Below are positions 11,567 through 33,299 of a DNA stretch of 64,000 nucleotides, piece by piece. Each line of letters begins with the position of its first letter. Within the stretch, counting starts at the first letter, position 1. Source of the stretch: Candidatus Omnitrophota bacterium (GTDB lineage Bacteria > Omnitrophota > Gorgyraeia > Gygaellales > Profunditerraquicolaceae); contig QZKH01000003.1 of NCBI GenBank assembly GCA_003598025.1, positions 170,048 through 234,047 of the forward strand. Direction: 5' to 3'. A program made the translations under genes and the position numbers. The notes beneath the pieces were generated by a model that was given only the letters and a program-made list of their open reading frames with translations, was not told where the DNA came from and did no database searches.

Positions 11567-11728
11567 CTATCTTCTGACCTTGGATTTCTTTCTTTTACGT
11601 TCACTGGGTTTTTCGTAGTGTTTCCGGTCTCTTACCTCCCTTAGAATGCCTTCTTGCTCGATCTTCTTCTTGAAACGGCGAAGGGCTGACTCAAACGATT
11701 CATCTTTTCTGATCTCAACTTGTGACAT
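11567..11728 (-). CDS. rpsU: Ribosomal protein S21 (not in the ORF track)
   Basis: Manual translation: MSQVEIRKDESFESALRRFKKKIEQEGILREVRDRKHYEKPSERKRKKSKVRR (53 aa). Strong match to S21 (E. coli [47 protein letters not shown]). AGGAG Shine-Dalgarno 8 nt upstream. Confidence 0.75.
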   Translation of the reverse strand: MSQVEIRKDESFESALRRFKKKIEQEGILREVRDRKHYEKPSERKRKKSKVRR

Positions 11729-11787
11729 ACTATCATCTCCTTTTAAGCAATACTATCACTCTTTGGCTACCTTGTCAATATGTACAG

Positions 11788-11857
11788 GTCCGTTTCTCCC
11801 ACTGACCACAGAAGTGCCCCCCGGGGGCACTTCTGTGATGGCTGACAGAAACGGACC
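11788..11857. repeat. 70-bp GC-rich imperfect palindromic REP-like element (copy A), immediately downstream of tonB
   Basis: ggtccgtttctcccactgaccacagaagtgcccc-ccgg-gggcacttctgtgatggctgacagaaacggacc. The outer 11 bp and inner 13 bp of each arm pair perfectly. Its exact reverse complement (with 1 extra central G:C) recurs at 12629-12699. Confidence 0.75.
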
Positions 11858-11899
11858 TATTACTCTTAGCTTACTATGAACTATCAACTATGAACTAAT

Positions 11900-12568
11900 C
11901 TACTCTACCTCAAATGAAATAACCACATTAAACGATAACTGGGGGTAATCAAGCTCTTTCGGAAAAGGCGGGAAAGGTGATGCTTCATCAATACTATCAA
12001 GGGTGATCTTTTTTAAGTATTGAGAGGCCGATGATTTTTCCTGAATCAGGCGGGCATCGCGAAGCGTGCCGTCAGCATCAATAATAAAAGTGATCTGTGT
12101 TTCACCCGTTTCCTGGCCGTTGTAATTCTGGTAAGCGGCGCGTTTTATCCTTTCTCTTACTATTTGGTAGTAAGATATGTATGAGGGATTATCTATTTTA
12201 TTAAGGTCTATCGGAGGCAGGGATATCTTCTTTTTGACAGAGATTATATCCGGTTTTGCATATGTAGGTTTCTTGAATACCGGCTCTGTTAAGCCAGGCG
12301 TTTTGTTTCCGGGTATAAATTTATCCTTCTCGATTATAGGCTTTAGCAAGCTGCTATCAGGAGCGGCTTTAGGCGCCTTCATCTCTAAAAGTTCGCTCTT
12401 AAACAACTGCTTCTCTTTTACCTGTTTTATCTCTTTTAAGTAATTAATCTCGACTTCTTTCTCTTTTATTTTGGCAGGATTATTGTGAAAGAAATTAGCT
12501 TGAATAAAAATAGCAGAATGCAAGAATAGGGAGATTAAAAGGGCTATCTGGAATTTATCGAGTCGCAT
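11900..12568 (-). CDS. tonB: TonB-family energy transducer (C-terminal TonB domain)
   Basis: 222 aa; N-terminal membrane anchor, Pro/Lys-rich spacer, C-terminal ...GETQITFIIDADGTLRDARLIQEKSSAS...SPFPPFP typical of the TonB C-terminal domain. Confidence 0.65.
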   Translation of the reverse strand: MRLDKFQIALLISLFLHSAIFIQANFFHNNPAKIKEKEVEINYLKEIKQVKEKQLFKSELLEMKAPKAAPDSSLLKPIIEKDKFIPGNKTPGLTEPVFKKPTYAKPDIISVKKKISLPPIDLNKIDNPSYISYYQIVRERIKRAAYQNYNGQETGETQITFIIDADGTLRDARLIQEKSSASQYLKKITLDSIDEASPFPPFPKELDYPQLSFNVVISFEVE

Positions 12569-12628
12569 AATAAGAATAAAATAACACGTAGGACAGCATA
12601 ATTCAATATATTAGTTCATGGTTGCTTA

Positions 12629-12699
12629 GGTCCGTTTCTGTCAGCCATCACAGAAGTGCCCCCGGGGGGCACTTCTGTGGTCAGTGGGAGAAACGGACC
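12629..12699. repeat. REP-like palindromic element (copy B), inverted copy of 11788-11857, between the TBDR gene and tonB
   Basis: The sequence equals the reverse complement of copy A (a single central-base difference). Confidence 0.75.
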
Positions 12700-12704
12700 T
12701 GGTT

Positions 12705-14600
12705 TTAGAAGGTGATTTTCACTCCTCCCATTACTGTCCGCCCTGGTTCGGCGTAATTTTTTACTTCTTCGTAATTTTCGTCAGTAATATTATCAACCCT
12801 GAAGAACAATTCTTTGCCTGAAAAGATTTCATAGTTCAAAATAAAATCAAGCTTGGTATAGGATTTAAGCAGCCTGTTGCCTGAATCCGGCCTGTGGCCG
12901 GTATATTGAGAGATTATATTCATTTCTAATTTATCGGTAGGCTCAAAATCAACCTTAAAATACACCTTGTTTTTTGGCCTCCTTAAAAGTTCATCCCCTG
13001 TCGCTTTATCTTCAGTGTCCTGCCAGGTGTATCCGGTGACGAGCTTTAATGATTTAAAAGGCCTGTAAGAGGCGTCCGCTTCGAAACCATATATCCTTGC
13101 TTTGCCGATATTAGAGTATTGGGCTGTGGTAAATGTCGCAGGGTTATATTTTGCATCGATAAGGTTCTTAATGTGCGTCCTGAAATAAGAGAATCCAAGA
13201 TTCAATTTATCATTAAACGCCGGCTGTTCTAAACCCACTTCATAAGACTGGCTCTCTTCAGGCTGAAGATTAGGATTGCCGCCCCCAAACCACGGGTCGC
13301 TTAGAGCATGAAGCTGGTAAAGTGTCGGAGCTTTGAATGCGGTTGCCCACATGCCTTTTAACTTTGTTTTTGAGCAAAAGGTATAAGCAGAGTCGATTTT
13401 ATAGGTTTCCTTTGTTCCGAAATAGGAGTGATTATCAAATCTTAGCCCGGTATTTAACACAAATTTATCATTTAAGTTAAACGAGTTTTGAAGATAATAA
13501 CCACGGTTCCTGCTTATAACTTTAGGAAAGTGAGTTTCGGATGATCCGCCGAGGTAATCAGTATAGTAATAATAATTCCCTTTTTCCCTCTGCCAGTCAA
13601 GGCCGAAAGTTATCGTATCAAAGTCAACAGGCGTTAAGGTGTGCTGCCAGTCAATTTGCTGGTTTTCACCGAGATACCAGTCCCTAAGGTAATCATCCGG
13701 GAACATGGCATCCTTATCATTTGAATCCGTGCGGTAATTTTGCATAAATGAAAGCTGAAGTTTTTGCTTCCAGATATCCGTAATATTATTATTTATAAAT
13801 GTCGTTACCATCAACTGCCTTTCCTTGGCAAGCATATCCGGGTCGTCTTTAAGCCCGATGGAGTTATCATATTCATGTCTTGAGTCAGAGAGCCTGAAAC
13901 TTGTGCCGATAGAATTATCCTTATTTATATCGTAATCTAACCTTAAAGAAAGATTCAGGTTTTCATACGGATCGTTCTCCGAGGTATTTTTAAGGCTGGA
14001 TATGCCGTGACTTTTATAGTGCATTATGCCTGCGCTATAAGAAAAATCATTGATCCTTCCTGAAGAATCAAATGCTTCTTTTAAGGTATCATAAGTGCCG
14101 TAAGAAGCCGAAAAGCTGCTCTGTGGCTTTCCTTTACCTTTCCTGGTTATTATATTTATTACTCCTCCTATTGCGTCCGAGCCGTAAAGGGTGCTTTGCG
14201 CTCCGCGGACTATTTCTATCCTCTCAACGTTATCAAGGCTAAGGTTGGCAAAGTCAAAAGCCCCGTTTGTAGCAATCGGGTCGTACATCCTCACATTATC
14301 AATCATTATTTTTGTGTGATTTGAGTTAGTCCCCCTTAAGAATACTGAAACCGGGCCGCCGAAACTTCCGGTTTGCACTATATCTAATCCTGCGGTTTCT
14401 TTTATGAAATCTTTTATATTTGTCTGTTTGCTTTCTTCTATATCCCTGCGGGTAAATACAGTGACTGCCTGCGTTGTGCCTTTAATGCTCTGCTCGTTCC
14501 TTAAAGGCGTAACTACGATTTTATCAAGGTCAATATTATCGGCAAAACTGTTTGTGCCGAAAAAAATCAAAGCGGCTGATAAAACCAATGTTTTTTTCAT
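12705..14600 (-). CDS. btuB: TonB-dependent outer-membrane receptor, BtuB-like (cobalamin/corrinoid transporter candidate)
   Basis: 631 aa; signal peptide, TonB box DKIVVTPLRNEQ, plug and barrel motifs, C-terminal ...GGVKITF ending in Phe. Located downstream of a cobalamin riboswitch. Confidence 0.8.
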   Translation of the reverse strand: MKKTLVLSAALIFFGTNSFADNIDLDKIVVTPLRNEQSIKGTTQAVTVFTRRDIEESKQTNIKDFIKETAGLDIVQTGSFGGPVSVFLRGTNSNHTKIMIDNVRMYDPIATNGAFDFANLSLDNVERIEIVRGAQSTLYGSDAIGGVINIITRKGKGKPQSSFSASYGTYDTLKEAFDSSGRINDFSYSAGIMHYKSHGISSLKNTSENDPYENLNLSLRLDYDINKDNSIGTSFRLSDSRHEYDNSIGLKDDPDMLAKERQLMVTTFINNNITDIWKQKLQLSFMQNYRTDSNDKDAMFPDDYLRDWYLGENQQIDWQHTLTPVDFDTITFGLDWQREKGNYYYYTDYLGGSSETHFPKVISRNRGYYLQNSFNLNDKFVLNTGLRFDNHSYFGTKETYKIDSAYTFCSKTKLKGMWATAFKAPTLYQLHALSDPWFGGGNPNLQPEESQSYEVGLEQPAFNDKLNLGFSYFRTHIKNLIDAKYNPATFTTAQYSNIGKARIYGFEADASYRPFKSLKLVTGYTWQDTEDKATGDELLRRPKNKVYFKVDFEPTDKLEMNIISQYTGHRPDSGNRLLKSYTKLDFILNYEIFSGKELFFRVDNITDENYEEVKNYAEPGRTVMGGVKITF

Positions 14601-15274
14601 ACTCTTTGCTCCTTTTCTATAATCTTGTATTCCTGGATGTCCAAGAACCAGTATTCTTTAATGAACAATTTGTCTGTTTTTGTTATTTCAATGCGGTTTT
14701 TAAAATTTGGGCCGTCAAATACAAAAGAGTGAAATTCACCCATTTCCCCGCATATATCCACATCGGAAATTTTTTCTATGTCTGCAATAAACTGCTTGTC
14801 AATGACCCGGCCGATCCAATCCTTTTGCAGTTTTTTTGCCTGCGCGCTGGTAACAATGGCCTTAAAACCAAAATCAACCAGCTCATTAAGCACGCTTTTT
14901 GTATCCTGGTGCCATATGGGAGATATTACGCCTAAGTCCTGGGCCTGGCACATGTTTTGCACCCAGTCTTTTAAATCCTGCAGGTATATGTCTCCCCTGA
15001 TGATTTGTCCGACGCCATAAGACTTGAGTTCCGAAAGAGTATTTCTAAATACCTCTTCATAATTACGCTCGTTTGTTGTCTTCTGAACTAATTCAACACC
15101 CAAAGAATCAGCCTGGAGTTTAACGAGCTCAGCTTTTGCGCCATGAAAAGTGACCCGCCTGTACTCTTCCGATATAAAGTTGAATAAATAATCGACTTTA
15201 TATCCCTGCTGTTGCGCCTTAAATAATGACAGGCAGCTATCTTTGCCGCTGCTCCATGAGCAAGCAACCTTCAT
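14597..15274 (-). CDS. DUF71/COG2102 PP-loop ATP pyrophosphatase (Dph6/MJ0570-like)
   Basis: 225 aa; N-terminal MKVACSWSSGKDS PP-loop (SGGKDS-type). First gene after the cobalamin riboswitch; 4-nt overlap with the btuB start. Confidence 0.7.
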   Translation of the reverse strand: MKVACSWSSGKDSCLSLFKAQQQGYKVDYLFNFISEEYRRVTFHGAKAELVKLQADSLGVELVQKTTNERNYEEVFRNTLSELKSYGVGQIIRGDIYLQDLKDWVQNMCQAQDLGVISPIWHQDTKSVLNELVDFGFKAIVTSAQAKKLQKDWIGRVIDKQFIADIEKISDVDICGEMGEFHSFVFDGPNFKNRIEITKTDKLFIKEYWFLDIQEYKIIEKEQRV

Positions 15275-15342: not shown

Positions 15343-15520
15343 TTGCACCCTATTTACTTAGCCCTTATCCGCGAGGCGTTACATTTTGATATAGGCAGGT
15401 CTTCTGACTACGGGTTTAACCTATTGGCTGCGCCTTCCCGGTATTACCAGTGGCATCTGCAGCTGTTTTACCCTTTACAGCGGCGGGACCGTGGCCGATT
15501 TTCACGGCCTTCCCTTTACC
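15343..15520 (-). promoter_or_regulatory. Cobalamin (AdoCbl) riboswitch aptamer
   Basis: Minus-sense RNA contains ...aauagguaaagggaaggccgugaaaaucggccacggucccgccgcuguaaagggu...gcagaugccacugguaauaccgggaaggcgcagcc...gucagaagaccugccua. It includes the B12-box GCCACUG, the GGGAAGGC core and the 3' GUCAGaAGACCUGCC element characteristic of RF00174. Confidence 0.8.
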
Positions 15521-15547
15521 TATTCAAAATTCCAAATTGTTACTTCT

Positions 15548-15575
15548 ATTCTATTTTTAAATTTTCTTTTGTCAA
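15548..15575 (-). promoter_or_regulatory. Candidate sigma70-type promoter for the riboswitch-btuB transcript
   Basis: Minus-sense TTGACA-N16-TAGAAT about 30 nt upstream of the aptamer. The -35 overlaps the btuD stop codon. Confidence 0.4.
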
Positions 15576-16354
15576 TATTTATTTTTTGCAACCAGCAGTA
15601 CATGCGGTTTTCCCGATATGGGGTTTTTGTTTACGATAACCAGAGTCTTATAAACATTCTCAATGTTTTGATAAGTCAATACCTCTTCGGGCTGGCCGAT
15701 CTTTGAGACCATCCCTTCATGCAGCATGACAATTTTATCGCAATACTCACTAGCAAGGTTTAAGTCATGCAAGACTATAACAACTGTTATCTTTTCATTT
15801 TTATTAAGCTGTTTAAGCAGATTGAGCATCTGGACCTGATGGCCTATATCAAGATGGGATGTTGGTTCGTCCAGGAGTAAAACTTTTGGCTTTTGGGTAA
15901 GCGCTTTGGCAATAATGACCATTTGTTTTTCACCGGCGCTTAATTCATGGATAAACCTATCTTTAAGTTTATAGGTTCCGGTAAGCTCAAGCGCCTTAGC
16001 GGCGATCTCGTAATCAGCCTTTGATTCCCATTGTGTGCGTTTTAGAAAAGGTATCCTGCCAAGCATGGCTATATCCATTACGGTAAACGAGAAATTGATA
16101 TCTATACTTTGCGGCACAAAAGCAAATTCACAGCTTAACTCGTGGGGGTTAAAGCTTAAAAGATCTTTCTCCTTATAAGTGATTTTCCCCGCTGAGGGCT
16201 GTATGTATCTGCTTATTACCCTGAGCAAAGTGGATTTACCAGAGCCGTTTGGGCCGATAATGCCGGTGAATTGGCCGTCTTCTATCTTAAGAGAAATATC
16301 ATGCAGGACATCGTTTTTGAGATAACCGGCAGTAATACCTTTTAATTCAATCAT
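15572..16354 (-). CDS. btuD: ABC transporter ATP-binding protein, BtuD/FepC family
   Basis: 260 aa; Walker A GPNGSGKST, signature LSAGEKQ, Walker B LLLDEPTSHLD. Confidence 0.8.
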   Translation of the reverse strand: MIELKGITAGYLKNDVLHDISLKIEDGQFTGIIGPNGSGKSTLLRVISRYIQPSAGKITYKEKDLLSFNPHELSCEFAFVPQSIDINFSFTVMDIAMLGRIPFLKRTQWESKADYEIAAKALELTGTYKLKDRFIHELSAGEKQMVIIAKALTQKPKVLLLDEPTSHLDIGHQVQMLNLLKQLNKNEKITVVIVLHDLNLASEYCDKIVMLHEGMVSKIGQPEEVLTYQNIENVYKTLVIVNKNPISGKPHVLLVAKNKY

Positions 16355-16356
16355 TT

Positions 16357-17316
16357 TTAGAGTGTAATTTTCTGTTTCTTCCTAAGCAATAAAATAAAAA
16401 CAGGCCCGCCGATGACCGATGTAATGACGCCAATAGGAATCTCTACCGGCGCAAGCATTACCCTGCTTATTATATCGGCAATTATTAAAAATATAGCAGA
16501 TGAAACCGCGCTTACCGGTATCAGCGTCCTGTGGTCTGAACCGAATATGAACCTGATTGCATGCGGTATGATGAGGCCGATAAAGCCGATTATGCCGCAG
16601 ACGCATACAATGCTTGCAGTCATAATCGATGCTATTATAAATAATATCTTTCTTATTGTGTTTACATTTATTCCGAGATGATGCGCCTCTTCTTCACCAA
16701 GGCTTATGGCATTTAGGTCGCGCGCAAGGTATAAAGATATAGCAATACCACAAGATACTATTACTCCGACAATATAAAGCAGTTTGAAATCAAATAGCTG
16801 CAGGCTGCCCAAAAGCCACCAGGTTATGCTATGCATACCCTCATTTGTGGAGACAGAAATAAAAAACAGCAGCAGGCTTGAAAAAATAGCACCTGTAATC
16901 ACCCCGGATAAAAGCAGCCCCTGGGAAGAGATCTTACCGTTGATTTTAGCAAGGTTATAAACAATTAGCATGGTGGTTGCTGCTCCGATAAAAGCGATTA
17001 AAGGCAGGAAAATCAGTGATACTCCAAGCAACAATCCTATTATAGCCCCCAGCCCTGCGCCGCTTGATACGCCTAGAACATAAGGCTCAGCCAGCGGGTT
17101 TCTTAATATCGCCTGGAATATTAAACCTGACACCGCTAGCCCCGAACCTGCAATAAGCGCAAGTAGTATCCTTGATAACCTTAATTTCAATATTTCAGGA
17201 TTAGCGAGCAACTGGTTAAAGCCCACTTTGACTGCCCCGTTGGTTAAGCCAAGATAGGCCGCTAATAACAGTAATGACAATAATAGGCCGATAAATATTG
17301 ATTTTTTATCTTTCAT
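16357..17316 (-). CDS. btuC: FecCD-family ABC permease (BtuC-like)
   Basis: 319 aa; polytopic membrane protein with FecCD-family pattern; tightly coupled to the flanking genes. Confidence 0.8.
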   Translation of the reverse strand: MKDKKSIFIGLLLSLLLLAAYLGLTNGAVKVGFNQLLANPEILKLRLSRILLALIAGSGLAVSGLIFQAILRNPLAEPYVLGVSSGAGLGAIIGLLLGVSLIFLPLIAFIGAATTMLIVYNLAKINGKISSQGLLLSGVITGAIFSSLLLFFISVSTNEGMHSITWWLLGSLQLFDFKLLYIVGVIVSCGIAISLYLARDLNAISLGEEEAHHLGINVNTIRKILFIIASIMTASIVCVCGIIGFIGLIIPHAIRFIFGSDHRTLIPVSAVSSAIFLIIADIISRVMLAPVEIPIGVITSVIGGPVFILLLRKKQKITL

Positions 17317-18139
17317 CGTAGAATTTACTATGAAGGAATTCCGCGCCTTCTACCATTCTTGGACCCGGGCGTAAAATCATTTCCGGGGTCATATCCATTA
17401 TGATATGGTTGTTTTTTACTGCTTTTATATTCTTCCAGCCGATCCTTTTAGAAATATCATATTTAGTATTACTGCCCGCCATATACCCTAATATTATAAA
17501 ATCAGGGTCACGGTCGATGACAACCTCTGAAGAAAACCTGGAATATGGCTTTGGGGTATCATGAGCGATATTCAAACCTCCCGCAATCCCGATCAGCTCA
17601 TCAATGATAGAGCCTTTTCCTGCTGTCATTAACGGCTCTCCCCATATCTCAACAAAGACTTTCGGTTTCTTTTCATCAGGGATGTTTTGAGTTTTTTTCC
17701 CTATGAAGTCCAGTTTTTCTTTAAGCTTATCTACAAGATTCTTTGCTTCGCTTTGTTTTCCGGTGAGCCTGCCTATCTCTATGACTGAGTTAAACAACTC
17801 TTGAAAATTTTCAGGGTCACTGACAAACACTTTGATATCCATTGCCCGTAATTTATTCACCACAGGCGCCTGCTCTAAACCCGTGGCAAAAACAATATCC
17901 GGTTTCATGGACACTATCATCTCTATGTTGGGTTCTGAAAAAGTGCCTATCTTCTTAATCTGTTTTGCCTGTTCAGGGTAATCGCACCAAATCGTATTGG
18001 CGATAATATTGTTTCCTAAACCAAGGCTGAAGAGTATTTCCGTAGTTGCCGGAGAAAGAGAGATTATCCTTATGCCTTCGGCATTGCAGAATGAAAAAAT
18101 GAACGACAATATTAATGTTAATAGGCCAAGGCGCTTCAT
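17306..18139 (-). CDS. btuF: Periplasmic cobalamin/siderophore-type substrate-binding protein (BtuF-like)
   Basis: 277 aa; signal peptide and class III SBP pattern (RIISLSPATTEILFSLG...). Confidence 0.7.
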   Translation of the reverse strand: MKRLGLLTLILSFIFSFCNAEGIRIISLSPATTEILFSLGLGNNIIANTIWCDYPEQAKQIKKIGTFSEPNIEMIVSMKPDIVFATGLEQAPVVNKLRAMDIKVFVSDPENFQELFNSVIEIGRLTGKQSEAKNLVDKLKEKLDFIGKKTQNIPDEKKPKVFVEIWGEPLMTAGKGSIIDELIGIAGGLNIAHDTPKPYSRFSSEVVIDRDPDFIILGYMAGSNTKYDISKRIGWKNIKAVKNNHIIMDMTPEMILRPGPRMVEGAEFLHSKFYDER

Positions 18140-18143
18140 TATA

Positions 18144-18647
18144 TCAGTATTCGATGCCTCTTCTTGCTTTCTTGCCTTTGCTGTAGTAGTGTTTTACTTC
18201 GCGGATTTCGCTTACTAAGTCAGCGGCTTTTATTATTTTGGGATGCGCATAGCGGCCGGTAAGGATGATTTCGCAATCTTTGGGCACGTTGTTAATACAG
18301 CTTAATACATCGGTAATGCGGATTAGCCCCAGGTTTATGGCGACGTTAATTTCATCCAGTATGATCACATCGTAGCACTTTTTATTTACAGCCTTTTTTA
18401 CGGCGTCAATCCCCTTTTTTGTAAAATCTATATCTTTCTGCGATGGCTGCCTGCACACAAAACATCTGCTGCCGAATTGCTCAACCTTGATATTTTTGTG
18501 TTTCTTTAACGCTTTAATCTCGCTGCAGGCCCTGCCTTTAAGAAATTGACAGAAGTAAACTTTTTTCCCTGCTCCGCTGGCACGTAACGCAAGCCCGAGC
18601 GCTGCCGTAGTTTTTCCTTTTCCATTTCCGGTATATACTTGTATCAT
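18144..18647 (-). CDS. btuR: Cob(I)yrinic acid a,c-diamide / corrinoid adenosyltransferase (CobO/BtuR)
   Basis: 167 aa; MIQVYTGNGKGKTTAALGLALRASGAGKKVYFCQFLKG is the classic CobA/BtuR P-loop. Confidence 0.85.
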   Translation of the reverse strand: MIQVYTGNGKGKTTAALGLALRASGAGKKVYFCQFLKGRACSEIKALKKHKNIKVEQFGSRCFVCRQPSQKDIDFTKKGIDAVKKAVNKKCYDVIILDEINVAINLGLIRITDVLSCINNVPKDCEIILTGRYAHPKIIKAADLVSEIREVKHYYSKGKKARRGIEY

Positions 18648-21392: not shown

Positions 21393-22509
21393 TACAAAGG
21401 CTTAATATGTGTCTTGCGATATTCATGCTCGACTCAGGTTTAGATATCTTTTTAGCTGCGTTTGCAAGTTCCTTAAGTTTTTCAGGCGATGCAATCAGCT
21501 CTTCGACTGCAAGGTTTATTCTGTTTGCTTTATCAATCTTAATAGCTGCTTTATGTTCGGTTAAATAAGCTGTGTTGGAAGCCTCTTGCCCGGGGATGGG
21601 ATGAACGATTATCATCGGAATATGCTTGGATAAGGCTTCAGCAGTTGTTATGCCCCCGGGTTTTGTTATTAATACATCTGCAATACTCATCAGTTCGTTT
21701 ATATTGTTTGCGTACCCGAATAAAACGACTTTTTTACGGTATTTGTTAAGTTTTTTCTTTATTGTCCGGTAGAGCTTCTTGTTAGTCCCTGTTACGATAA
21801 TTTCCTGTATATCTTGATTTACATGTTCAAGAGATGATATTATGCTTTTAACAGGTCCGAGGCCCTGGCCTCCGCCCATAATAAGGGCAGTAAATTTATT
21901 GCTCTTAAGCCCGAGTTTGCTAAATACCTGGTCTTTGTTTACAGGCCGGTTGAAATCAGGGTCAAAAGGTATTCCAAAGGGCTTTATTTTTGAATGCGGG
22001 ACTCCTTTTTGCATAAGGCGTATGGATACCTCTTCGGAAGGCGTTATATAGGTGTTGACGTCGTCATAAACCCAATAAGCATGAGGTATATAATCTGTAA
22101 GTACGGCTATAAGAGGTATTGAAGAATGCGTTACCTTTTTATAGTCTGCTACCATGCCGCATGGAAAAGCCTGGGAGCAGACAACCGCATCCGGTTTGAA
22201 GCTGTTAAAAAGCTTTTCCAGCTTAGGCGAATTGAACTTATGTATCGACTCTTTTATCCTGGATATGCTTTTTGCAATCTTTTGGTTGTCGTATAAATAA
22301 CTCCAGATTGCCGGGGTCCTCTTTATTATCGCCATATAAAGGCGGTTAACTACCTTTTCTGATATGGGATTGGTGTAGTTAAAAGCGTTTATATTCAATA
22401 TTTCAGTTTCCGGCTCAAGCCGTTTTATAGACTTTTCTATAGCCTCTGTCGCGCAGCGGTGCCCTGACACCTCGGAGATATACATCAAGATGATTCTTTT
22501 TGCCGGCAT
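21385..22509 (-). CDS. MGDG-synthase/UgtP-like GT28 glycosyltransferase (diacylglycerol glycosyltransferase)
   Basis: 374 aa; N-terminal MGDG_synth-like region and a C-terminal GT28 C-domain (GGGQGLGP...). Confidence 0.65.
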   Translation of the reverse strand: MPAKRIILMYISEVSGHRCATEAIEKSIKRLEPETEILNINAFNYTNPISEKVVNRLYMAIIKRTPAIWSYLYDNQKIAKSISRIKESIHKFNSPKLEKLFNSFKPDAVVCSQAFPCGMVADYKKVTHSSIPLIAVLTDYIPHAYWVYDDVNTYITPSEEVSIRLMQKGVPHSKIKPFGIPFDPDFNRPVNKDQVFSKLGLKSNKFTALIMGGGQGLGPVKSIISSLEHVNQDIQEIIVTGTNKKLYRTIKKKLNKYRKKVVLFGYANNINELMSIADVLITKPGGITTAEALSKHIPMIIVHPIPGQEASNTAYLTEHKAAIKIDKANRINLAVEELIASPEKLKELANAAKKISKPESSMNIARHILSLCNV

Positions 22510-22511
22510 TA

Positions 22512-23678
22512 TCAGATTTTTCCTTCCTTATAAAGCTCGGTAAATACAGCGGATATTTGGGGGTGAAATTGCTTGCCTGCCAAGGTCTCAATCTCTTTTA
22601 CTGCCTCTTCGTTAGTCAGGCCTTCGTGATACGGCCTGTTTGTGGTCATGGCATCAAAAGAATCTGCCACGGAAATAATTGCAGCTATCAAAGGAATTTC
22701 TTCTCCTTTTAATCCCTCGGGATATCCGGTACCGTCATAGCGTTCATGATGGTATTTGACTCCCAAAATAGCATCTTCAAGCTCTCTTATCGGGATGAGG
22801 ATGTTAACACCGACAACAGGATGCGATTTAATGACTTTTCTTTCGTCATCATCCAGAGGACCCTTTTTATTTAAAATAGATTCCGGGATGCCTATTTTAC
22901 CGATGTCATGCAAGAGGCTTGCAATATGCAGATTTTCAATAAATTTATCATCAATTCTGAAATAGCTTTTTTCCATAAGCTTGCGTGCAATCTCAAGGCA
23001 AATACTGCTGACGCGCTCAGTGTGCCCGTGGGTGTAGTGGTCTTTAGCGTCGATTGCTGCGGCAAGCGCAATAGTCGTATGTATAAACAGCCGTTTTTCT
23101 CTCTGCAGCTGAAGCTCTAATTCTTTAAAAAGCTGGGCATTCCTGATAGCCATGGCAACATCTGAAGCCAAAGCGCTAAAAAAACTTAGCTCATCGCGGG
23201 AGAACTCTTTACCGTCTTTTTTATGGCCAAGCAGCAGGATGCCGAGCAGTTCATCCCTGTAGTAGCTCGGGATACAGGCAACAGCTTCAAATATCTCCAT
23301 CTGATATAAGGCGCTGTTTAAAAGCTCTTTGCTCGTAAAATCAAGCTCATTGCCCAGGACAGCATCTTTCGCTTCGCTATAAACTAATGAGCCGTTATTG
23401 AATATTTTTTTGTCTTCCCTGTTTATAAAAAATTTGATCAACGGATTATCGGAATCAAGGCGGGCAAAGCCTTCCGGTATTTTTATTCCGGCAGGGCCGC
23501 GGGAAACGGTTAAAACATAGCTGTCTTTATCTTTAACATGCAGCAAGATCCCCGCATGGCTGACGCTTACTTTTTGGACAAGCATGCGGATGATCAGCTT
23601 GAGAAGAAGCTCAGGCTCATGCACAAGGATCATATTCCTTGCTGCTTCTTCCAATTCTCTCTTATAATCTAAAGCCAT
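22512..23678 (-). CDS. GAF-domain HD-GYP phosphodiesterase (c-di-GMP)
   Basis: 388 aa; HD (HDIGKIGIP) and HHERYDGTGYP motifs after a GAF-like N-terminal domain. Confidence 0.8.
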   Translation of the reverse strand: MALDYKRELEEAARNMILVHEPELLLKLIIRMLVQKVSVSHAGILLHVKDKDSYVLTVSRGPAGIKIPEGFARLDSDNPLIKFFINREDKKIFNNGSLVYSEAKDAVLGNELDFTSKELLNSALYQMEIFEAVACIPSYYRDELLGILLLGHKKDGKEFSRDELSFFSALASDVAMAIRNAQLFKELELQLQREKRLFIHTTIALAAAIDAKDHYTHGHTERVSSICLEIARKLMEKSYFRIDDKFIENLHIASLLHDIGKIGIPESILNKKGPLDDDERKVIKSHPVVGVNILIPIRELEDAILGVKYHHERYDGTGYPEGLKGEEIPLIAAIISVADSFDAMTTNRPYHEGLTNEEAVKEIETLAGKQFHPQISAVFTELYKEGKI

Positions 23679-23693
23679 TTTTATGGGGGTGAC

Positions 23694-24056
23694 TTAGGAT
23701 AATTCTTTTAAAACAACTTTTTCCAATTCTTCCAGCCTTAGGGGCTTATGGATATAATCAGTTGCGCCAAATTCCTTACATTTATTGAATGATTCTTCTT
23801 CGTCAGGCTTTTTGCCGGTTACCATGATTACTTTAGTGGAAGGATTGATTTTTTTTATTTGCTTGAGCGTTTCTATGCCGTCAATGCCTTCCATTTTAAT
23901 ATCGAGCAGGATCAGCTGGGGCGGCGCTTCAGAGACGATTTTTAAAGCCTCTTCACCGCTTGCTGCAATCCCGACGTCAATTTTTCTTTTCTTAAAAAAA
24001 TTGGCGGCAAATTCCCTTACGTCCAATTCATCATCTACTATTAAAAGCCTTGGCAT
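23694..24056 (-). CDS. Single-domain response regulator (CheY-like receiver)
   Basis: 120 aa; LIVDDE...D(55)...K pattern. Confidence 0.8.
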   Translation of the reverse strand: MPRLLIVDDELDVREFAANFFKKRKIDVGIAASGEEALKIVSEAPPQLILLDIKMEGIDGIETLKQIKKINPSTKVIMVTGKKPDEEESFNKCKEFGATDYIHKPLRLEELEKVVLKELS

Positions 24057-24172
24057 CTTATCCTCGCTTATTTAAACTTATCCCGGAAACCGAAACAATC
24101 TTATCATAACAAATACGCTCAAACAAGTAGAAATAGAATAGTTCATGGTACATAGTTGATTGGTTAAGACTT

Positions 24173-26359
24173 TTACTCTGCTGTTGCAATTGGTAACTCA
24201 AGTATGAAACGCGTTCCGACCTTATAAGAAGATTCAAAAGCAATCCTGCCTTTATGAGTGTCGGTTATAATCTTTTTGATAACATACAAGCCAAGCCCTG
24301 TGCCTTTGCGCGATGAAGTTTTTGTAGTAAAAAACGGGGTAAATACCTTCTTAATGTTGTCTTCTTTTACCCCCATGCCGTTATCCTCGATGATCATTTC
24401 AAGGAAATCATCCTTAGGCTTAGCGCTTATAGTCAGTCTTCCCCTATAGTTTGGCTCATTCAGGGCAGCTTTGCGTTCGTTCGTGGCATCATAAGCATTA
24501 TCGATGAAGTTAAAAAATGCTTCCTGAAGCTGTACAAGATTACCTTTTATTTTAGGAGTATCTTTACTGTAGTTACGGATAATGTCAATTTCTGAAAGCT
24601 TGATTTTAAACTGTATCATATCAAGCGTAGCATCTAAAATCTGGTCAATGGTCAGCTCACCAAAATTATCTTCTCCCTTACGGGTATATTTAAGCATGCC
24701 TTTTACAACTTCGCCTCCCTGCATGACGTTGGCCTGGATCCTTTCAAGGGCATGTCCTACGCTTTTTATCATCTCCCGGACTTCCGGTGTGCAGTTAGCC
24801 GTATCTGTTAACTTTATAGTATCAATCGTATCCCCGGCAATAAGGGATAAAGCATAAAACCTGTTGTTTATTTGATGAGAAAGCCCGTCTGCCATGGTTC
24901 CGATTGTCGCCATTTTCTCAGCCTGGGCAACCTGTTCCTGCATCTCTTTTGTTTCCTCGTAGAATTGGGCGTTCTCAATAGCCAAAGCAGCCTGGCTAGC
25001 CAATACCTGGAAAACATTTAAGTCATCATGAGTGTATATTTCGCCGGACATCTTATCTCCAAGCACGACAAAACCGATAAATTTATCCTCAAGGAAGCTG
25101 GGAATGATTACAGTGGCTGTTAAAAGGCGCATATTTTCTTCCAGATGCGCATAGGTAATATCGTTTGTATCAAGCATCTTGCGTTTGATTTCGTCGTATA
25201 TTAATGGCTGCCTCCTGAAAACTATCCAGTTGACGAGCGGATTATCGGAACTTAATTTTGGAATGGGGATGCGGCCCTTATCTCTGCTTACCTGTAGCAT
25301 GTATTCATCGCTTTCCTGGTTATAAAGATAAATGGCGGCGTAAGAGATTTTTACGGTTTTAGTTACTATGTGCGTTATCAGGTCAAGGAGCTTTCTTAAG
25401 TTTCGGATACGGGTCATGCCAACCGAAGCCTGCTTTAATACATCCTGGTATCTTTTCTGCTCTCTTAAAAGCCTTGCTTCGGCTTTTCTTTCCAAATAAA
25501 TGTAGATAAACGGCCCGACTGTTGCCAAGCCTGCCATTAAACCTAATGGCGCAATCCACCAGCGCGTACCTAAATTTGTTATCAGCCATGTCCTGAACCA
25601 GACTACAAGCGCAAAAGGTAAACCAAGGACTATTGTATAAACAGCGATAAATGTTCCGGTCCTGCTGATAGCAACCCGGATATCCATTAGACGGTATTTG
25701 AGAATTGCATATGAGATAATAAGAGGGAAAGTTGTAAATAGTATTAATGGATAAGGTGGGAAATTTATATTAAAAGAAAGCAAAAAAGTGCTACCTCCTC
25801 CAGTAAATCCCATAACTGAGGCCAAAAATATATATTTTATTTGATTTGCTTTAAAAGCGGTTGTTTTTTTATATTCCCTCGATAGTAAATTTAATCCGTA
25901 AAGAACAATAAGAGAAAAATAGATAGCAAATAAATAATATCCAATGCCAGGCACTATGTAGTATTGGAATATTGATTTTGACGTTAAATCTTTTATATAT
26001 AGTGGAGTAAAGTTTAGTAAGAAAATTATCGAACTGAGTATTAAGACAATATTAAAAATAAGTTTAATTCTGCTGAGTTTTTGTAACTCAAGAAATACAA
26101 TTATAAAGCGTAACCATAAAAATGCAACAAGCATGCCAGAGATTTCAACAAACTTAAGAATTATAAAGCTCGCTTGCTTATTATCAGAATTTATGGCTAA
26201 AAAATAAAAAACACTCCAAAACGAAGCATTGATACATAGCATTGCCCAGGCATTATTGACAACACTTTTACGGTTTCTTAAATAAACCAGAATACCAATG
26301 CCAAAAACAGTAAAGAATCCTAATAAAGTTATTGTGTTAAAATAAAGTTTTGCTATCAA
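24173..26359 (-). CDS. Sensor histidine kinase with N-terminal 7TM sensor region, GAF domain, HisKA and HATPase domains
   Basis: 728 aa; about 7 N-terminal transmembrane helices, GAF-like middle domain, H-box DGLSHQINN, N/G boxes (DNGMGV..., GTGLGL). Confidence 0.8.
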   Translation of the reverse strand: MIAKLYFNTITLLGFFTVFGIGILVYLRNRKSVVNNAWAMLCINASFWSVFYFLAINSDNKQASFIILKFVEISGMLVAFLWLRFIIVFLELQKLSRIKLIFNIVLILSSIIFLLNFTPLYIKDLTSKSIFQYYIVPGIGYYLFAIYFSLIVLYGLNLLSREYKKTTAFKANQIKYIFLASVMGFTGGGSTFLLSFNINFPPYPLILFTTFPLIISYAILKYRLMDIRVAISRTGTFIAVYTIVLGLPFALVVWFRTWLITNLGTRWWIAPLGLMAGLATVGPFIYIYLERKAEARLLREQKRYQDVLKQASVGMTRIRNLRKLLDLITHIVTKTVKISYAAIYLYNQESDEYMLQVSRDKGRIPIPKLSSDNPLVNWIVFRRQPLIYDEIKRKMLDTNDITYAHLEENMRLLTATVIIPSFLEDKFIGFVVLGDKMSGEIYTHDDLNVFQVLASQAALAIENAQFYEETKEMQEQVAQAEKMATIGTMADGLSHQINNRFYALSLIAGDTIDTIKLTDTANCTPEVREMIKSVGHALERIQANVMQGGEVVKGMLKYTRKGEDNFGELTIDQILDATLDMIQFKIKLSEIDIIRNYSKDTPKIKGNLVQLQEAFFNFIDNAYDATNERKAALNEPNYRGRLTISAKPKDDFLEMIIEDNGMGVKEDNIKKVFTPFFTTKTSSRKGTGLGLYVIKKIITDTHKGRIAFESSYKVGTRFILELPIATAE

Positions 26360-27027
26360 TTACTATTTCTCCTACAAAATTGAAGAAAAGGTATAATCAT
26401 TGGTACGGTCTTTTTGTAGTGCAAATACTCATCACCAAACTTGATAAAAGACAATTTTTCCTCATAAATAGCTCTAATTATATACAATGGCGTATTAATA
26501 AATATAATTATAAAAAGCGCGTAAAATGCATTGGCAATCAACGATATGCCTATTAACTCAAAAATAATTCCTAAATAAATCGGATGCCTTATAAAACTAT
26601 AGGGACCAGTTTTAACACAAGAGTATTTTATTTCAGATTCATCTTCATTTACTAAATGTATCTTCCAATGTTCCCCTAAACTTTTGACAGACCAATATCT
26701 GATTACCCCTGCTAAAATAAATACTGAGATTCCGAACATACTAACCGCGAAATACTTAATACCGTTAGTGACAAAAAACTCAGCTATTACAACTAAACAT
26801 GTAACTAAGTACATAATTGAAGTAACTACCATTGTCCAGTCACCTTTGTACTTATATTTGTTTGTTTCCTTAGTTGTAAAAAAAGTTTCCCATACTCTCT
26901 CAAACATAATCAATACTGCAAAAATACTAAAAATTATTCCTCCTCTTGCCTCAGGGTAGAATATATTTAAAACTATTAATAGTACTGGAATTAATAAAAG
27001 AGAAAAAGCAATGAAAATAATAATCAT
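26356..27027 (-). CDS. ICMT/PEMT-superfamily membrane methyltransferase
   Basis: 223 aa; polytopic membrane protein with C-terminal ...GPYSFIRHPIYLG...E motif of isoprenylcysteine carboxyl methyltransferase-family enzymes. Very AT-rich gene; its stop overlaps the histidine kinase start by 4 nt. Confidence 0.6.
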   Translation of the reverse strand: MIIIFIAFSLLLIPVLLIVLNIFYPEARGGIIFSIFAVLIMFERVWETFFTTKETNKYKYKGDWTMVVTSIMYLVTCLVVIAEFFVTNGIKYFAVSMFGISVFILAGVIRYWSVKSLGEHWKIHLVNEDESEIKYSCVKTGPYSFIRHPIYLGIIFELIGISLIANAFYALFIIIFINTPLYIIRAIYEEKLSFIKFGDEYLHYKKTVPMIIPFLQFCRRNSN

Positions 27028-27797
27028 AAGTCTTCCAAATATTTAGGCGATCCAATAATCTTTAAAGTATCACGATAATATCTTGTATATAATGGTTTTT
27101 TTGATATTTTTAAGTTTTTTAACAATTTTGATAGTTCTTGGTCACCAAGCTTGAATTCAACAGCTTTTGAATCGCCAAAAACTCCAAAAGTTTCCAATTT
27201 TATTTTTGATACCTTCATATCTTTAAGAGAATATGTTGTGTGGTACTCATATTTAACTTTTTCTTTTAATGGTTTTTTTATTTTGAACTTTAATATCCAC
27301 TCATTGTTAGAGTAAGCATCTACTTCAATAAATTTGTCAGTTTTAGCAAAATTTGCCACCGTTAACTGTTTATAATGAGGATAACCTGTAATTATATTGC
27401 CATGCTCAATTGCCAAATCAGTACTTTGGGCTACCGAAATAGGGATGAATCCGAATTTTTTTGTCACATATTTTATGGGAAAGGATATAAAAGGAATGTT
27501 AAACTTAGTTGCATGGCCAACAATGAGCGAAAAAGTCAATTCAGTAAAGCGGCCGACCGGTGTATCATAAAAATTCAATATTGTAATACACATTAGGCTT
27601 CGTCCGGGTAATAGTACAAGTGGTTTTAGCTTTTTTGTACCAATAATTTCAGCAGCTGTTTTTGATGATATTGTAAATAAGGCATTGATAGCTTCGCACT
27701 TATATTTAATAGGGATATCAATTAGTAAATCTCTAACTTTTACTTTTTTTTCAACATTTATCTTGAACGAATCCAGATCTACTTTTAAATTTTTCAC
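27024..27797 (-). CDS. Hypothetical Lys-rich protein (possibly acetoacetate-decarboxylase-like fold; weak)
   Basis: 257 aa, no transmembrane segment, very AT-rich; 4-nt overlaps with both neighbours. The family call is tentative and from memory only. Confidence 0.3.
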   Translation of the reverse strand: MKNLKVDLDSFKINVEKKVKVRDLLIDIPIKYKCEAINALFTISSKTAAEIIGTKKLKPLVLLPGRSLMCITILNFYDTPVGRFTELTFSLIVGHATKFNIPFISFPIKYVTKKFGFIPISVAQSTDLAIEHGNIITGYPHYKQLTVANFAKTDKFIEVDAYSNNEWILKFKIKKPLKEKVKYEYHTTYSLKDMKVSKIKLETFGVFGDSKAVEFKLGDQELSKLLKNLKISKKPLYTRYYRDTLKIIGSPKYLEDL

Positions 27798-27799
27798 CT

Positions 27800-29023
27800 T
27801 CAGTCTCCTTTTAAATTGTTTTTTAACTTAATCATTAGATCAATCAAACAATCTATCTGTTCTTTTGTATGTGTTGCTTTGACTGTGAGCCTTAATCTGG
27901 CTTTTCCCCAGGGTACTGCTGGCCAGCGCACGCATGGTGCCAAAATTCCGTTTTCAAGTAACTTTTTAGAAAACTCTATTGCTTTTTCTTCTTTTCCTAT
28001 TAAAACCGGGATGATTTGGGTTTCGCTGTTAAGCGTATCAAACCCTGATTTTGTCAGATTAGTTTTAAGATAGCTGACATTTGACCATAGGTTTTCTCTA
28101 AGAGAATGATTATTTTTTGCTTCTTTTACAGCTGCAATCAGGGCAGCAGCGATTGAAGGTGGTATTGGCGCAGAAAAAATATAGGAACGCGCGCTTATTC
28201 TTAAATAATCAATCAGGGCTTTTGTGCCGCAAACAAATCCGCCTACACCGCCAAACGATTTAGTGAAAGTCCCCATTGTGATATCAATATCGTTTTCATC
28301 AAGCCCAAAATGCTCGGCAGTTCCCCTGCCGTTTTTACCCAAAACTCCGGATGCGTGCGCATCATCTACCATAACAATTGAATTATATTTTTTCGCAAGC
28401 TCAACAATTCCCGGCAACGGAGCGATGTCACCGTCCATGCTGAATACACCGTCAGTAACGATCATTTTCCGTATTTTTTTTAATTTCTTAAGTTTTCCTT
28501 CGAGGTCCTTCATGTCCTTATGTTTATATACAACGATTTGGGCATGGCTTAGCCTGCAGCCGTCAATTATACTTGCGTGGTTTAATTCATCGCTTAAGAT
28601 TATTCTTTTCCCCTGGAAAGGAGCTGGTATCAGCCTGCCTGCTATCTTATGAAGGCCGCTTACAGCATCCATTACTGCAGGAATTGTTCCGGTATTTGCC
28701 ATATAACCGGTAGAAAAAGTTATTGCGGATTTGCTATTCTTAAAATCTGCTATTGCCTTTTCAAGCTCTACCTGGATATCGGTATTCCCGGAAACAAGCC
28801 GCGAACCACCGGAGCCAACTCCGTATTTGTCAATTGCTTCCTTTGCTGCCTTTTTTAGAAGCTCGCTATTGGCCAGGCCTAAATAATCATTTGAGCAGAA
28901 AATCAGCACTTTTTTACCGTTAGCGACAACTTCTAATGATGTTGGTGAGCCGGATATTAAACTGATATCAGGGTAAAGCCCAAAATCACGGATATTTTTA
29001 AGTATGTTTTCTATATTCTCCAT
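27800..29023 (-). CDS. PLP-dependent alpha-oxoamine synthase (BioF/KBL/serine-palmitoyltransferase/CqsA family)
   Basis: 407 aa; GGSRLVSGN, DDAHASGVLGKNGRG and the PLP-lysine motif TFTKSFGGVGGF. Confidence 0.8.
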   Translation of the reverse strand: MENIENILKNIRDFGLYPDISLISGSPTSLEVVANGKKVLIFCSNDYLGLANSELLKKAAKEAIDKYGVGSGGSRLVSGNTDIQVELEKAIADFKNSKSAITFSTGYMANTGTIPAVMDAVSGLHKIAGRLIPAPFQGKRIILSDELNHASIIDGCRLSHAQIVVYKHKDMKDLEGKLKKLKKIRKMIVTDGVFSMDGDIAPLPGIVELAKKYNSIVMVDDAHASGVLGKNGRGTAEHFGLDENDIDITMGTFTKSFGGVGGFVCGTKALIDYLRISARSYIFSAPIPPSIAAALIAAVKEAKNNHSLRENLWSNVSYLKTNLTKSGFDTLNSETQIIPVLIGKEEKAIEFSKKLLENGILAPCVRWPAVPWGKARLRLTVKATHTKEQIDCLIDLMIKLKNNLKGD

Positions 29024-29030
29024 TTATAAA

Positions 29031-30032
29031 TTATATTACCGGCGCTTCCGGCAGCCAGGTCTCAAAGCCGTATTTAGCAGCTATATTGGCTATTTCTTCA
29101 AGGTTGTCAGGGTTGATATTATCACCTAAAGAATAATTATTGAATCTTGATTCTTTTGCCAGCAAAAGCGTTTCGGCAAAAGGCGCGTTCACGACATTTC
29201 TAGGCAGGCATTTATTAATAAAAATATCTGCCTCGAAAGGCAGCTTAATCAATCCCGTCCTTATAATAGTGATGTCATTTCTTAATTTTTTGTTATTAAC
29301 CATGCAAAACGGCGCAGAGGCATCAAAGATTATACAGCCGGGTTTTGGAATATCAAGATTAATGATTGTGCTTAATGGCGCGTTGCCGATAGCAACGATT
29401 ACATCAGACGCAGAGGTTAATTCGGAAAGGTTATCTTCTATATTTACGGTAAGCCCGCCATATTGGGAAGCAAGTTCTGTTTTCAGCCTGATGACAGATT
29501 CAATCTCGGTATCGTTAAGCGTTATGTCAGAAGTAAAATCAATTATTTTTTTTGTAAAAAGCTTACCTACTGCCGTACCTGCCCCGACTACAGAAAACTT
29601 CATTTTAGCAAGGTCAATCCCCCTGCTCTTGACAGTCCTGTAAACAGATTCAACAATCGACCATGCGAGCAAAGTATTGCCCGTTGTCATCGGCATGCGT
29701 ACTTTTTTTAACAAAGTAACTGCGCTGGTAGACTCGACAAGGTTGTATCTCTCCAGGCCGATCATTTCTATATCTAAGTTCTTAGAAATATCTTCATCGG
29801 AAAGGATAGAATTTAAAATCAAGGCTTCTCCCTGAAGGAGAAGGTCTTTAGGCGGTGTGGACGGGATAACCAGGTAGCTGAGGATATCCTGTGAACCAAA
29901 AATTATCCTTTTGGGCTTGAGAATTTTGTAAATCGGTGTCTTTTTTAATGCAGGGTTGAATAAATCCCAAAACCAGCCTTTTTTAAGGTATTTTATTGTC
30001 CGGGGATGGATAATAAACGCAAATGACCTCAT
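29031..30032 (-). CDS. Acyl-ACP reductase (AAR)-family NAD(P)-dependent reductase, paralog 1
   Basis: 333 aa. Aligns by eye along its whole length with cyanobacterial AAR: FIIHPRT vs GLIGHLTS; TTGNTLLAWSIV...SVVGAGTAVGK vs TTGNTHTAYVIC...AVVGATGDIGS; CIIFDASAP vs CVLIDGGYP; C-terminal APFAETLLLAKE...YSLG...AKYGFE vs ACFAEAMLLEFE...FSWG...VRHGFQ. Confidence 0.65.
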   Translation of the reverse strand: MRSFAFIIHPRTIKYLKKGWFWDLFNPALKKTPIYKILKPKRIIFGSQDILSYLVIPSTPPKDLLLQGEALILNSILSDEDISKNLDIEMIGLERYNLVESTSAVTLLKKVRMPMTTGNTLLAWSIVESVYRTVKSRGIDLAKMKFSVVGAGTAVGKLFTKKIIDFTSDITLNDTEIESVIRLKTELASQYGGLTVNIEDNLSELTSASDVIVAIGNAPLSTIINLDIPKPGCIIFDASAPFCMVNNKKLRNDITIIRTGLIKLPFEADIFINKCLPRNVVNAPFAETLLLAKESRFNNYSLGDNINPDNLEEIANIAAKYGFETWLPEAPVI

Positions 30033-30033
30033 T

Positions 30034-31561: not shown

Positions 31562-31566
31562 ATTTT

Positions 31567-31812: not shown

Positions 31813-31848
31813 ATTACCACCTCTTTTAGCATATTTTATGTAACTATA

Positions 31849-31877
31849 TGTATACAGGCAAAATCTAAAGTTGTCAA
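31849..31877 (-). promoter_or_regulatory. Near-consensus sigma70-type promoter upstream of the HTH gene
   Basis: Minus-sense TTGACA-N17-TATACA about 36 nt upstream of the ATG, with an AAAAGAGGTGG Shine-Dalgarno. Confidence 0.45.
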
Positions 31878-31895
31878 GACATATCCAACCGCAAT

Positions 31896-33288: not shown

Positions 33289-33299
33289 TATTTTTCCTG

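Follow-up and report, generated by a model that had tools for sequence, protein, structure and literature searches.

The tonB gene in a 64,000-nt stretch of a Candidatus Omnitrophota genome (assembly GCA_003598025.1, contig QZKH01000003.1, forward-strand positions 170,048 to 234,047; hereafter the window, with coordinates counted from its first letter) is bracketed by two inverted copies of a 73-nt palindromic element. In the reading that we favour, and that we consider fairly probable, these palindromes are arm dimers resembling REPINs (doublets of repetitive extragenic palindromes, or REPs, that form hairpins), derived from a system of the RAYT (REP-associated tyrosine transposase) or TIRtron type. 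They would have been inserted around an ancestral tonB, and would now be hairpins lacking a U-tract that end the btuB and tonB transcription units. The structure of the elements, their status as insertions, the similarity of their terminal boxes to those of RAYT arms and their positions relative to genes and promoter-like sites were established directly.

The two copies were located as follows:

11786 to 11858, no strand assigned: element 1, a 73-nt imperfect palindrome; its perfect inverted repeat with element 2 extends over 11785-11859.
12628 to 12700, no strand assigned: element 2, reverse-complementary to element 1 at every position; the perfect inverted repeat extends over 12627-12701.

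An inverted-repeat search paired 11785-11859 with 12627-12701 over 75 nt at 100% reverse complementarity, with 767 nt between the two segments and an offset of 842 bp between the copies, and a script check returned 11786-11858 as the reverse complement of 12628-12700. The original prediction, made from the sequence alone, had described exact reverse complements that differed at one central base. The exactness was borne out by both procedures and the exception was not, since an exact reverse complement requires just what the central position shows, C in one copy against G in the other. The predicted coordinates were displaced by 1-2 nt (11788-11857 pairs with 12629-12698). Each element consists of AGGTCCGTTTCT (12 nt), a 9-nt bubble, CACAGAAGTGCCCCC (15 nt), one centre base and then segments of 15, 9 and 12 nt, giving 73 nt; the stems measured 12 bp (outer) and 15 bp (inner) and the bubble 9 nt per side, in place of the 11 bp, 13 bp and 10 bp first proposed. 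The 36-nt arms within each element are 83% complementary. The identity of the copies includes the unpaired bubble positions, and the 9-nt bubbles show perfect complementarity between the two copies. Both elements are extragenic, between complete genes, and a scan of the window listed this pair as its only perfect hairpins with a stem of at least 11 bp.

RNA folding in the mRNA sense gave -58.7 kcal/mol for element 1 (z -10.2) and -48.5 kcal/mol for element 2 (z -7.7), with equally stable structures in 0 of 200 shuffles; as single-stranded DNA (ssDNA) the two elements folded at -28 and -30 kcal/mol. Folding of RNA and ssDNA, together with the gene context, agrees with the earlier description of hairpin-forming, intergenic elements. 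The label REP, also used there, was not upheld: the elements are not classical REPs, because their halves do not fold alone (-2 and -3 kcal/mol; z 0.0 and -1.4) and their terminus, AGGTCCGTTTC, is without a GTAG foot.

The proposed relationship to a RAYT system was examined at a transposase locus about 20 kb away in the window, which comprises the following features:

31964 to 32455, minus strand: RAYT-type Y1 transposase gene, 163 aa, with the HUH motif (HPH) and the catalytic Tyr (YIHNNP) conserved.
31896 to 31948, plus strand: RAYT arm downstream of the gene, with outer box GGACCGTTTCC, a 33-nt spacer and inner box GGAAGTGTCC.
32523 to 32575, minus strand: RAYT arm upstream of the gene, 52/53 nt complementary to the other arm, with gene-proximal end GAAGTGTCCCCC.

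The RAYT protein matched Pfam Y1_Tnp at 8.8e-16 and scored 76.0 bits with the NCBIfam model REP_Tyr_transpos, against 23.6 for IS200. Its sole PDB match was E. coli TnpA-REP (4ER8), with HxH and Tyr115 aligned, and its homologues carry the name RayT and come from Omnitrophota. The motifs THPH, WQ and YIHNNP resemble those of subclasses 2.6 and 2.4 of Quentin et al. (PMC6006769), a likeness of motifs only and not of position in a tree. The 53-nt arms are inverted, 98% complementary, and fold weakly when taken alone.

Three further RAYT homologues (in loci L002, L035 and L037; 65-74% identity), each in a different gene context, were compared. In L002 and L037, GGACCGTTTCC is present at both outer ends of the RAYT, in the same inverted-arm architecture. 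In L035 the upstream copy is degenerate (GCACCGTTTCC) and the full copy is found about 0.9 kb downstream, where it ends a RAYT-less doublet. This gene-less doublet (L035 11232-11395; ~165 nt) has RAYT-arm termini, GCACCGTTTCC...GGAAACGGTCC, and lies 0.9 kb downstream of the RAYT homologue, after two small open reading frames (ORFs) without a Pfam match. The outer and inner boxes accompany RAYT into these differing gene contexts. A short hairpin, AGGACC-ATTGCCCCTAAAG-GAAACGGTCCT, at L037 18100-18130 also holds the RAYT outer box and lies within recX, at its 3' end, where it may be what is left of a solo arm inside a gene.

A search of the window for GGTCCGTTTC with up to one mismatch returned, outside both elements, only the outermost 10 nt of the two RAYT arms, which confirms the match between the termini of the elements and the RAYT flanks that had been noticed by eye. 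An outer box (GGnCCGTTTC) and an inner box (GAAsTG) are present in each element half and in the RAYT arms. When the two tonB halves were aligned with seven RAYT arms from four loci, the columns GG-CCGTTTC and GAA-TG were invariant. The seven RAYT arms align without a gap, and their box spacing is therefore fixed; the tonB halves require a gap of 20 nt. Element and RAYT arm share 9/10 positions of the outer box and, against the upstream arm, 11/12 of the inner one; that arm ends GAAGTGTCCCCC and the tonB halves end GAAGTGCCCCCC. The joining of the two RAYT arms with the gene removed would yield the architecture of the 73-mer. A RAYT-related origin by insertion is the best reading, because the boxes are shared and are invariant in the RAYT arms of three other genomes. 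The original prediction had gone further and had the elements mobilised by the transposase of the window. The related, insertion-derived origin stands, given the shared boxes and the absence of the elements from orthologous loci; mobilisation by that particular enzyme is no more than a possibility, since the elements have an interior unrelated to its arms and boxes set 20 nt closer together, and a profile of the arms misses the element halves.

Several observations weigh against the origin proposed here. The similarity to RAYT arms covers only about 10 + 6-12 nt, within an unrelated interior and with the boxes 20 nt closer together, and a hidden Markov model built from RAYT arms alone failed to retrieve the tonB halves at E<=10. 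The element halves are not self-folding REPs, and the transposase score of 76 bits falls just under the REP_Tyr_transpos cut-off of 80. Two copies only were seen, both at one locus, with no third in the 64 kb. A loose termini pattern (GGTCCGTTTCY-N40-70-RGAAACGGACC) gave 9 genome and 15 metagenome matches, and their interiors are unrelated to the tonB elements. Finally, an 18-nt motif shared by the flanks of both copies at unequal distances (described below) is not expected from two independent precise transpositions.

The genes and signals around the elements are as follows:

11567 to 11728, minus strand: rpsU (ribosomal protein S21).
11750 to 11778, minus strand: rpsU promoter-like site TTGACA-17-TAGTAT with extended TG, 10/12 matches in a promoter scan.
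11900 to 12568, minus strand: tonB, 222 aa, with a TonB C-terminal domain (TonB_2/TonB_C).
12578 to 12606, minus strand: putative tonB promoter, TTGAAT (12606-12601), 17-nt spacer and TATTTT (12583-12578), read from the sequence.
12705 to 14600, minus strand: TonB-dependent receptor (Plug and beta-barrel), BtuB-like.
14597 to 15274, minus strand: DUF71/Diphthami_syn_2 gene.
15377 to 15538, minus strand: cobalamin riboswitch, 97 bits.

The gene context given previously was found to be correct, with a cobalamin riboswitch, DUF71, a TonB-dependent receptor, a TonB_C protein and rpsU identified. The order of transcription, all on the minus strand, is riboswitch, DUF71, receptor, element 2, tonB, element 1 and rpsU, and a promoter-like site at 15575-15548 (11/12 matches) precedes the riboswitch. 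Element 2 begins 4 nt past the TAA that stops the receptor gene (12705-12707), and 21 nt separate its other end from the tonB -35 downstream; element 1 has the tonB stop codon 41 nt upstream of it and the rpsU -35 7 nt downstream. On this annotation each element is at the predicted end of a transcription unit, after the stop codon and just upstream of the next promoter-like site. Neither element site was listed by a terminator scan and no U-tract follows either hairpin (the sequences 3' of the hairpins, in the mRNA sense, are AAGCAACC and GTACATAT); an intrinsic (Rho-independent) terminator was ruled out, there being no U-tract directly after the GC-rich hairpin.

The putative tonB promoter matches 8/12 consensus positions, below the threshold of the promoter scan, and has 9 nt from TATTTT to the ATG with no Shine-Dalgarno sequence. 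The upstream regions of tonB in four Omnitrophota loci share a common geometry, TTGMMW-17-TAATCT-8/9-ATG, likewise with no Shine-Dalgarno sequence:

12578-12606 (minus strand) in the window, ~1710-1751 in L004, ~4960-5000 in L007 and ~4960-5000 in L008: tonB upstream geometry.

Because this geometry is conserved in the four orthologous loci and a Shine-Dalgarno sequence is missing, tonB is probably transcribed from a promoter of its own, as a leaderless message. The placement of both elements inside a single riboswitch-DUF71-btuB-tonB transcript, as first suggested, is doubtful on the same grounds. The orthologous rpsU promoter in L004 reads TTGACA-17-TATAAA. Directly upstream of the riboswitch-controlled DUF71-receptor unit, homologues of btuD, btuC, btuF and btuR occupy 15572-18647 (minus strand) and make up, with that unit, a compact B12 uptake and salvage locus.

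Orthologous tonB loci were then compared. The window TonB shares 100% identity with a protein in the annotation of a Candidatus Omnitrophota metagenome-assembled genome (MAG), with locus tag C4533_03305 on a 567-kb contig; the closest other TonB is only 55% identical, no close relative being at hand. The order receptor, tonB, rpsU, AP_endonuc_2, Memo and DUF1844 is kept in L004, L005 and L006, and the order from tonB and rpsU onwards is kept in L008 and L009. Judged by this conserved receptor-tonB-rpsU order, the position and orientation of tonB are ancestral. The composition of tonB is unremarkable, and an arrangement in which tonB was carried as cargo between two element ends was ruled out by the synteny and by this normal composition. 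Neither the elements nor the flank motif are present in the orthologous spacers. As the spacers are without the element despite the kept gene order, the elements are to be read as lineage-specific insertions and not as a conserved regulatory structure; the comparison with relatives had been proposed as a check on precisely this point, and conservation at the locus was not borne out. The tonB-rpsU spacer of L008 (5685-6384; also in L009) is 700 nt long, relatively GC-rich and highly structured, compared with 60-170 nt in other relatives, and matched no Rfam family.

The same comparison bears on whether the hairpins evolved in the host as locus-specific terminators or stabilisers unrelated to any transposase, with the box similarity a coincidence. 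Both copies are placed exactly where 3'-end hairpins are expected, L004 and L007 have unrelated native hairpins (between receptor and tonB in the former, after tonB in the latter), and the RAYT-arm profile misses the elements. We nevertheless regard this origin as very improbable: the elements are conserved in no orthologous locus, they are without a U-tract, independent evolution would not give 75/75 identity, and both terminal boxes match the clade-invariant boxes of RAYT arms at equivalent ends. By hand arithmetic, the chance of a coincident terminal outer 10-mer is roughly 1e-4, and smaller when the inner box is included. An assembly artefact is less credible still, to the point of being negligible. 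The sequence does come from a MAG, and the contigs of two assemblies do not reach equally far; the 75-nt repeats are, on the other hand, shorter than a read, the elements stand in intact intergenic spacers between complete, syntenic genes, and the same TonB protein is recorded from two contigs.

An 18-nt motif, CAAC(T/C)ATGAACTAAT(C/A)TA, was found on the tonB-proximal side of both copies:

11885 to 11902, plus strand: flank motif CAACTATGAACTAATCTA, at a distance of 26 nt from element 1; adjoins the tonB stop codon and takes it in.
12607 to 12624, minus strand: flank motif CAACCATGAACTAATATA, at a distance of 3 nt from element 2; directly upstream of the tonB -35.

The alignment score of the two copies was reached by 9/2000 shuffles, and the GAACTA-type flank motif reported earlier is thus real and present at both copies. 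A partial tandem copy at 11871-11881 precedes that at 11885-11902, and the tail motif beside the palindrome is CAACYATGAACTAAT. No other close match to the flank motif was found in the window. In L004 the tonB stop codon lies ~12 nt from the rpsU -35; the extra ~114 nt of the window correspond to a 41-nt tail and the 73-nt palindrome.

The shared flank motif, the 100% identity of the copies and their 842-bp spacing suggest local copying, and the second copy was probably made locally from the first, with a short flank. A fuller version of this, in which one insertion was followed by a local inverted duplication of the element plus its flank in place of two independent transpositions, is possible, if on balance unlikely. 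Template switching at the hairpin or imprecise cutting by the transposase could be the route, and the element may then no longer be mobile. Such a duplication would account for a motif on the same side of both copies that is seen neither elsewhere in the window nor at the orthologous loci, for the lack of any difference between copies less than a kilobase apart, and for the composition of the additional sequence relative to L004. It would need extra indels, since the motif stands at different distances (3 vs 26 nt), and perfect sharing is limited to 73-75 nt. It concerns the origin of the second copy, and is compatible with a RAYT-related origin of the first.

That the copies are exact inverted repeats also raises a functional question, namely whether they act together around tonB and not as two separate hairpins. 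At the RNA level, a 73-bp long-range duplex could loop out the tonB message and serve as a site of RNase III-type processing or decay, comparable with the RNase III-cut stems that flank rRNAs, with the bubbles nucleating the pairing. At the DNA level, recombination between the copies, as 75-bp arms, could flip tonB and so switch it on or off. When the 946-nt sense RNA was folded to minimum energy, the two elements paired with each other along their whole 73 nt, at -331.8 kcal/mol as opposed to -269.7 kcal/mol when the two local hairpins were forced; this long-range pairing arises because the elements are inverted copies. The mutually complementary 9-nt bubbles could nucleate it, the identity of the copies extends to those unpaired positions, and the copies are adjacent with no other copy in 64 kb. 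A joint function is all the same improbable. Properties of this kind hold by construction for any two inverted copies, and the local hairpins are very stable and form first during transcription. As a promoter for tonB itself seems to lie downstream of element 2, the copies may often be on different transcripts. A domain scan found no recombinase or integrase gene near tonB and no integrase within about 10 kb, so that neither a recombinase nor an invertase is encoded nearby, and tonB has the same orientation as in relatives and a normal composition. If true, a joint function would make the supply of TonB switchable independently of the B12-controlled receptor.

The arm-dimer interpretation was set against published classes of element. 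REPINs are inverted doublets of about 70-110 bp that form hairpins (Bertels & Rainey 2011, PMC3116915). The tonB elements resemble those of Pseudomonas and E. coli in their inverted arms, in forming one long imperfect hairpin, in their extragenic location and in a bubble that makes the element asymmetric, and a single Y1 (RAYT) gene has related sequence on its two sides, in inverted orientation. They differ in that their arms are not small palindromes and are without a GT[AG]G foot, and in sharing two short boxes with the RAYT flanks, whereas classical REPINs have the same sequence as those flanks. REPINs number tens to hundreds of copies per genome; the count of two for the tonB elements refers to the 64 kb of the window. 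REPINs are, by analogy, a functional counterpart of the tonB elements.

TIRtrons consist of a RAYT-like gene with long terminal inverted repeats (TIRs) on either side, often with GGGGWSAS at a set distance from the gene, and their TIRs are also found singly or in dimers, in moderate numbers (Di Nocera et al. 2013, PMC3733652). The window RAYT is likewise flanked by long inverted repeats that are not self-complementary, with an instance of GGGGWSAS (GGGGACAC) at the gene-proximal end of its upstream arm, and TIR singles and dimers in moderate numbers fit a low-copy arm dimer. Most TIRYT proteins are longer and have C-terminal helix-turn-helix (HTH) domains (subclass 2.1, PMC6006769), whereas the window RAYT consists of just the 163-aa core; the tonB elements, with GGGGGCAC, depart from GGGGWSAS at one position, and their arms are 20 nt shorter. 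The TIRtron is a better-fitting published description than the classical REP. 'Double foot' REPs can be produced from an inverted dimer that loses its central part (Quentin et al. 2018, PMC6006769), and those of subclass 2.4, with the atypical subclass 2.6, share with the tonB elements a long hairpin and a recognition foot at both ends. The WQ and YIHNNP motifs of the window RAYT fit these TnpA-REP subclasses. The foot is here GGWCCGTTTC and not GT[AG]G, and the HUH motif is THPH and not NH[IFVL]H; membership was judged by motifs. Two further classes were rejected: a miniature inverted-repeat transposable element with target-site duplication, because both copies are flanked by C on one side and A on the other with no direct duplication, and an integron cassette (attC), because the copies are inverted and not direct, no GTTRRRY core is present, no integrase lies within about 10 kb and tonB is syntenic.

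From these features we infer mobility, the enzyme responsible and any effect on RNA. Two shortened RAYT-type arms would have been joined head to head with no gene between them, giving non-coding miniature elements that would have entered both intergenic spaces around an ancestrally placed tonB in this lineage. An HUH/Y1 transposase would recognise the outer (GGnCCGTTTC) and inner (GAAsTG) boxes on ssDNA, and would cut and rejoin there. When transcribed, each element would form a very stable, U-tract-free hairpin at the 3' end of the btuB or tonB message. In E. coli, REPs and the bacterial interspersed mosaic elements (BIMEs) that contain them are said to act as mRNA 3'-end stabilisers, attenuators and modulators of translation, reportedly in work by Newbury in 1987, Espeli in 2001 and Liang, Rudd and Deutscher in 2015. 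The tonB elements are like them in being stable hairpins without a U-tract, past a stop codon and between co-directional genes, with one copy <15 nt from the stop; they differ in having a hairpin much longer and stronger than that of a single REP. By analogy with E. coli REP/BIME sequences, the hairpins could block 3'-5' exonucleases, dampen read-through into the next unit and partially insulate the downstream promoter, and element 2, only 4 nt past the stop codon, might interfere with termination of receptor translation.

Searches for further copies were made in genomes, metagenomes and viral contigs. A strict two-box pattern, GGTCCGTTTCTN{8,12}CACAGAAGTGCC, gave 0 matches in all three; as the window itself was not returned either, its source appears to be absent from these collections or masked in them, and the result is weak evidence on copy number. 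The matches to the loose termini pattern were almost all unrelated long palindromes from unrelated taxa, since a palindromic pattern selects palindromes; only one, in L018, came from Omnitrophota, and its interior is different. This MAG contains two intergenic palindromes (L018 6852-6921 and 2786-2887), one with termini GGTCCGTTTCT...GGAAACGGACC around the different interior, the other with GGGACGTTCCCC-type termini. In about 150 kb of Omnitrophota sequence the outer box is rare beyond RAYT flanks, being found in the tonB pair, the L035 doublet and the one L037 site, which suggests a low-copy family. In published RAYT groups other than 2 and 3, repeats are likewise of low abundance (PMC5581495). 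A search of proteins with the four open-frame translations of the element gave no match and was uninformative, Rfam at a permissive threshold across the locus gave only sub-threshold look-alikes of miRNA precursors, and a plasmid BLAST of the locus gave no match. No relatives of the RAYT were found in viral contigs.

Most characterisation of RAYT/REPIN and TIRtron systems comes from Proteobacteria, Cyanobacteria, Bacteroidetes and Acidobacteria, and a full-text literature search found no paper linking either to Omnitrophota. The tonB palindromes most likely belong to an unremarkable class of bacterial mini mobile element, one previously undescribed in this phylum. The window locus and the three related loci define a two-box arm architecture (GGACCGTTTCC, a fixed 33-nt spacer and GAAsTG) conserved across an Omnitrophota RAYT clade, of which the tonB palindromes are a candidate gene-less derivative and, as such, a candidate substrate for asking how a minimal 163-aa RAYT recognises DNA. 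For annotation, a receptor gene under B12-riboswitch control and tonB can have hairpins of this kind between them, and these may influence the expression of both. In other respects this is an ordinary small repeat, of limited practical importance unless the pair acts as a unit.

The RAYT locus yielded some further observations. An excisionase-type HTH_17 gene lies directly downstream of RAYT and outside the arms both in the window (31567-31812, minus strand) and in L037 (10603-10845). The two HTH_17 proteins are only 28% identical, the outer neighbours of the two loci differ, and the window protein matches the HTH model of antiphage MADS1 below its cut-off. The RAYT protein is 100% identical to one on JAGUZT010000011.1 (GCA_020060685.1), where the locus is identical to window 21964-40089. 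That contig ends at window 40089, inside an intact 423-aa ORF (39175-40446), and the window runs 24 kb further, so that it derives from a longer assembly of this genome or of one nearly identical to it; an element-like fragment at ~40089, at the contig end, was rejected as a chance match inside the intact ORF. The segment 26001-28000 of the window has a GC content of 0.30, against about 0.41 elsewhere, and covers an ORF without a Pfam match and an ICMT/PEMT-type gene.

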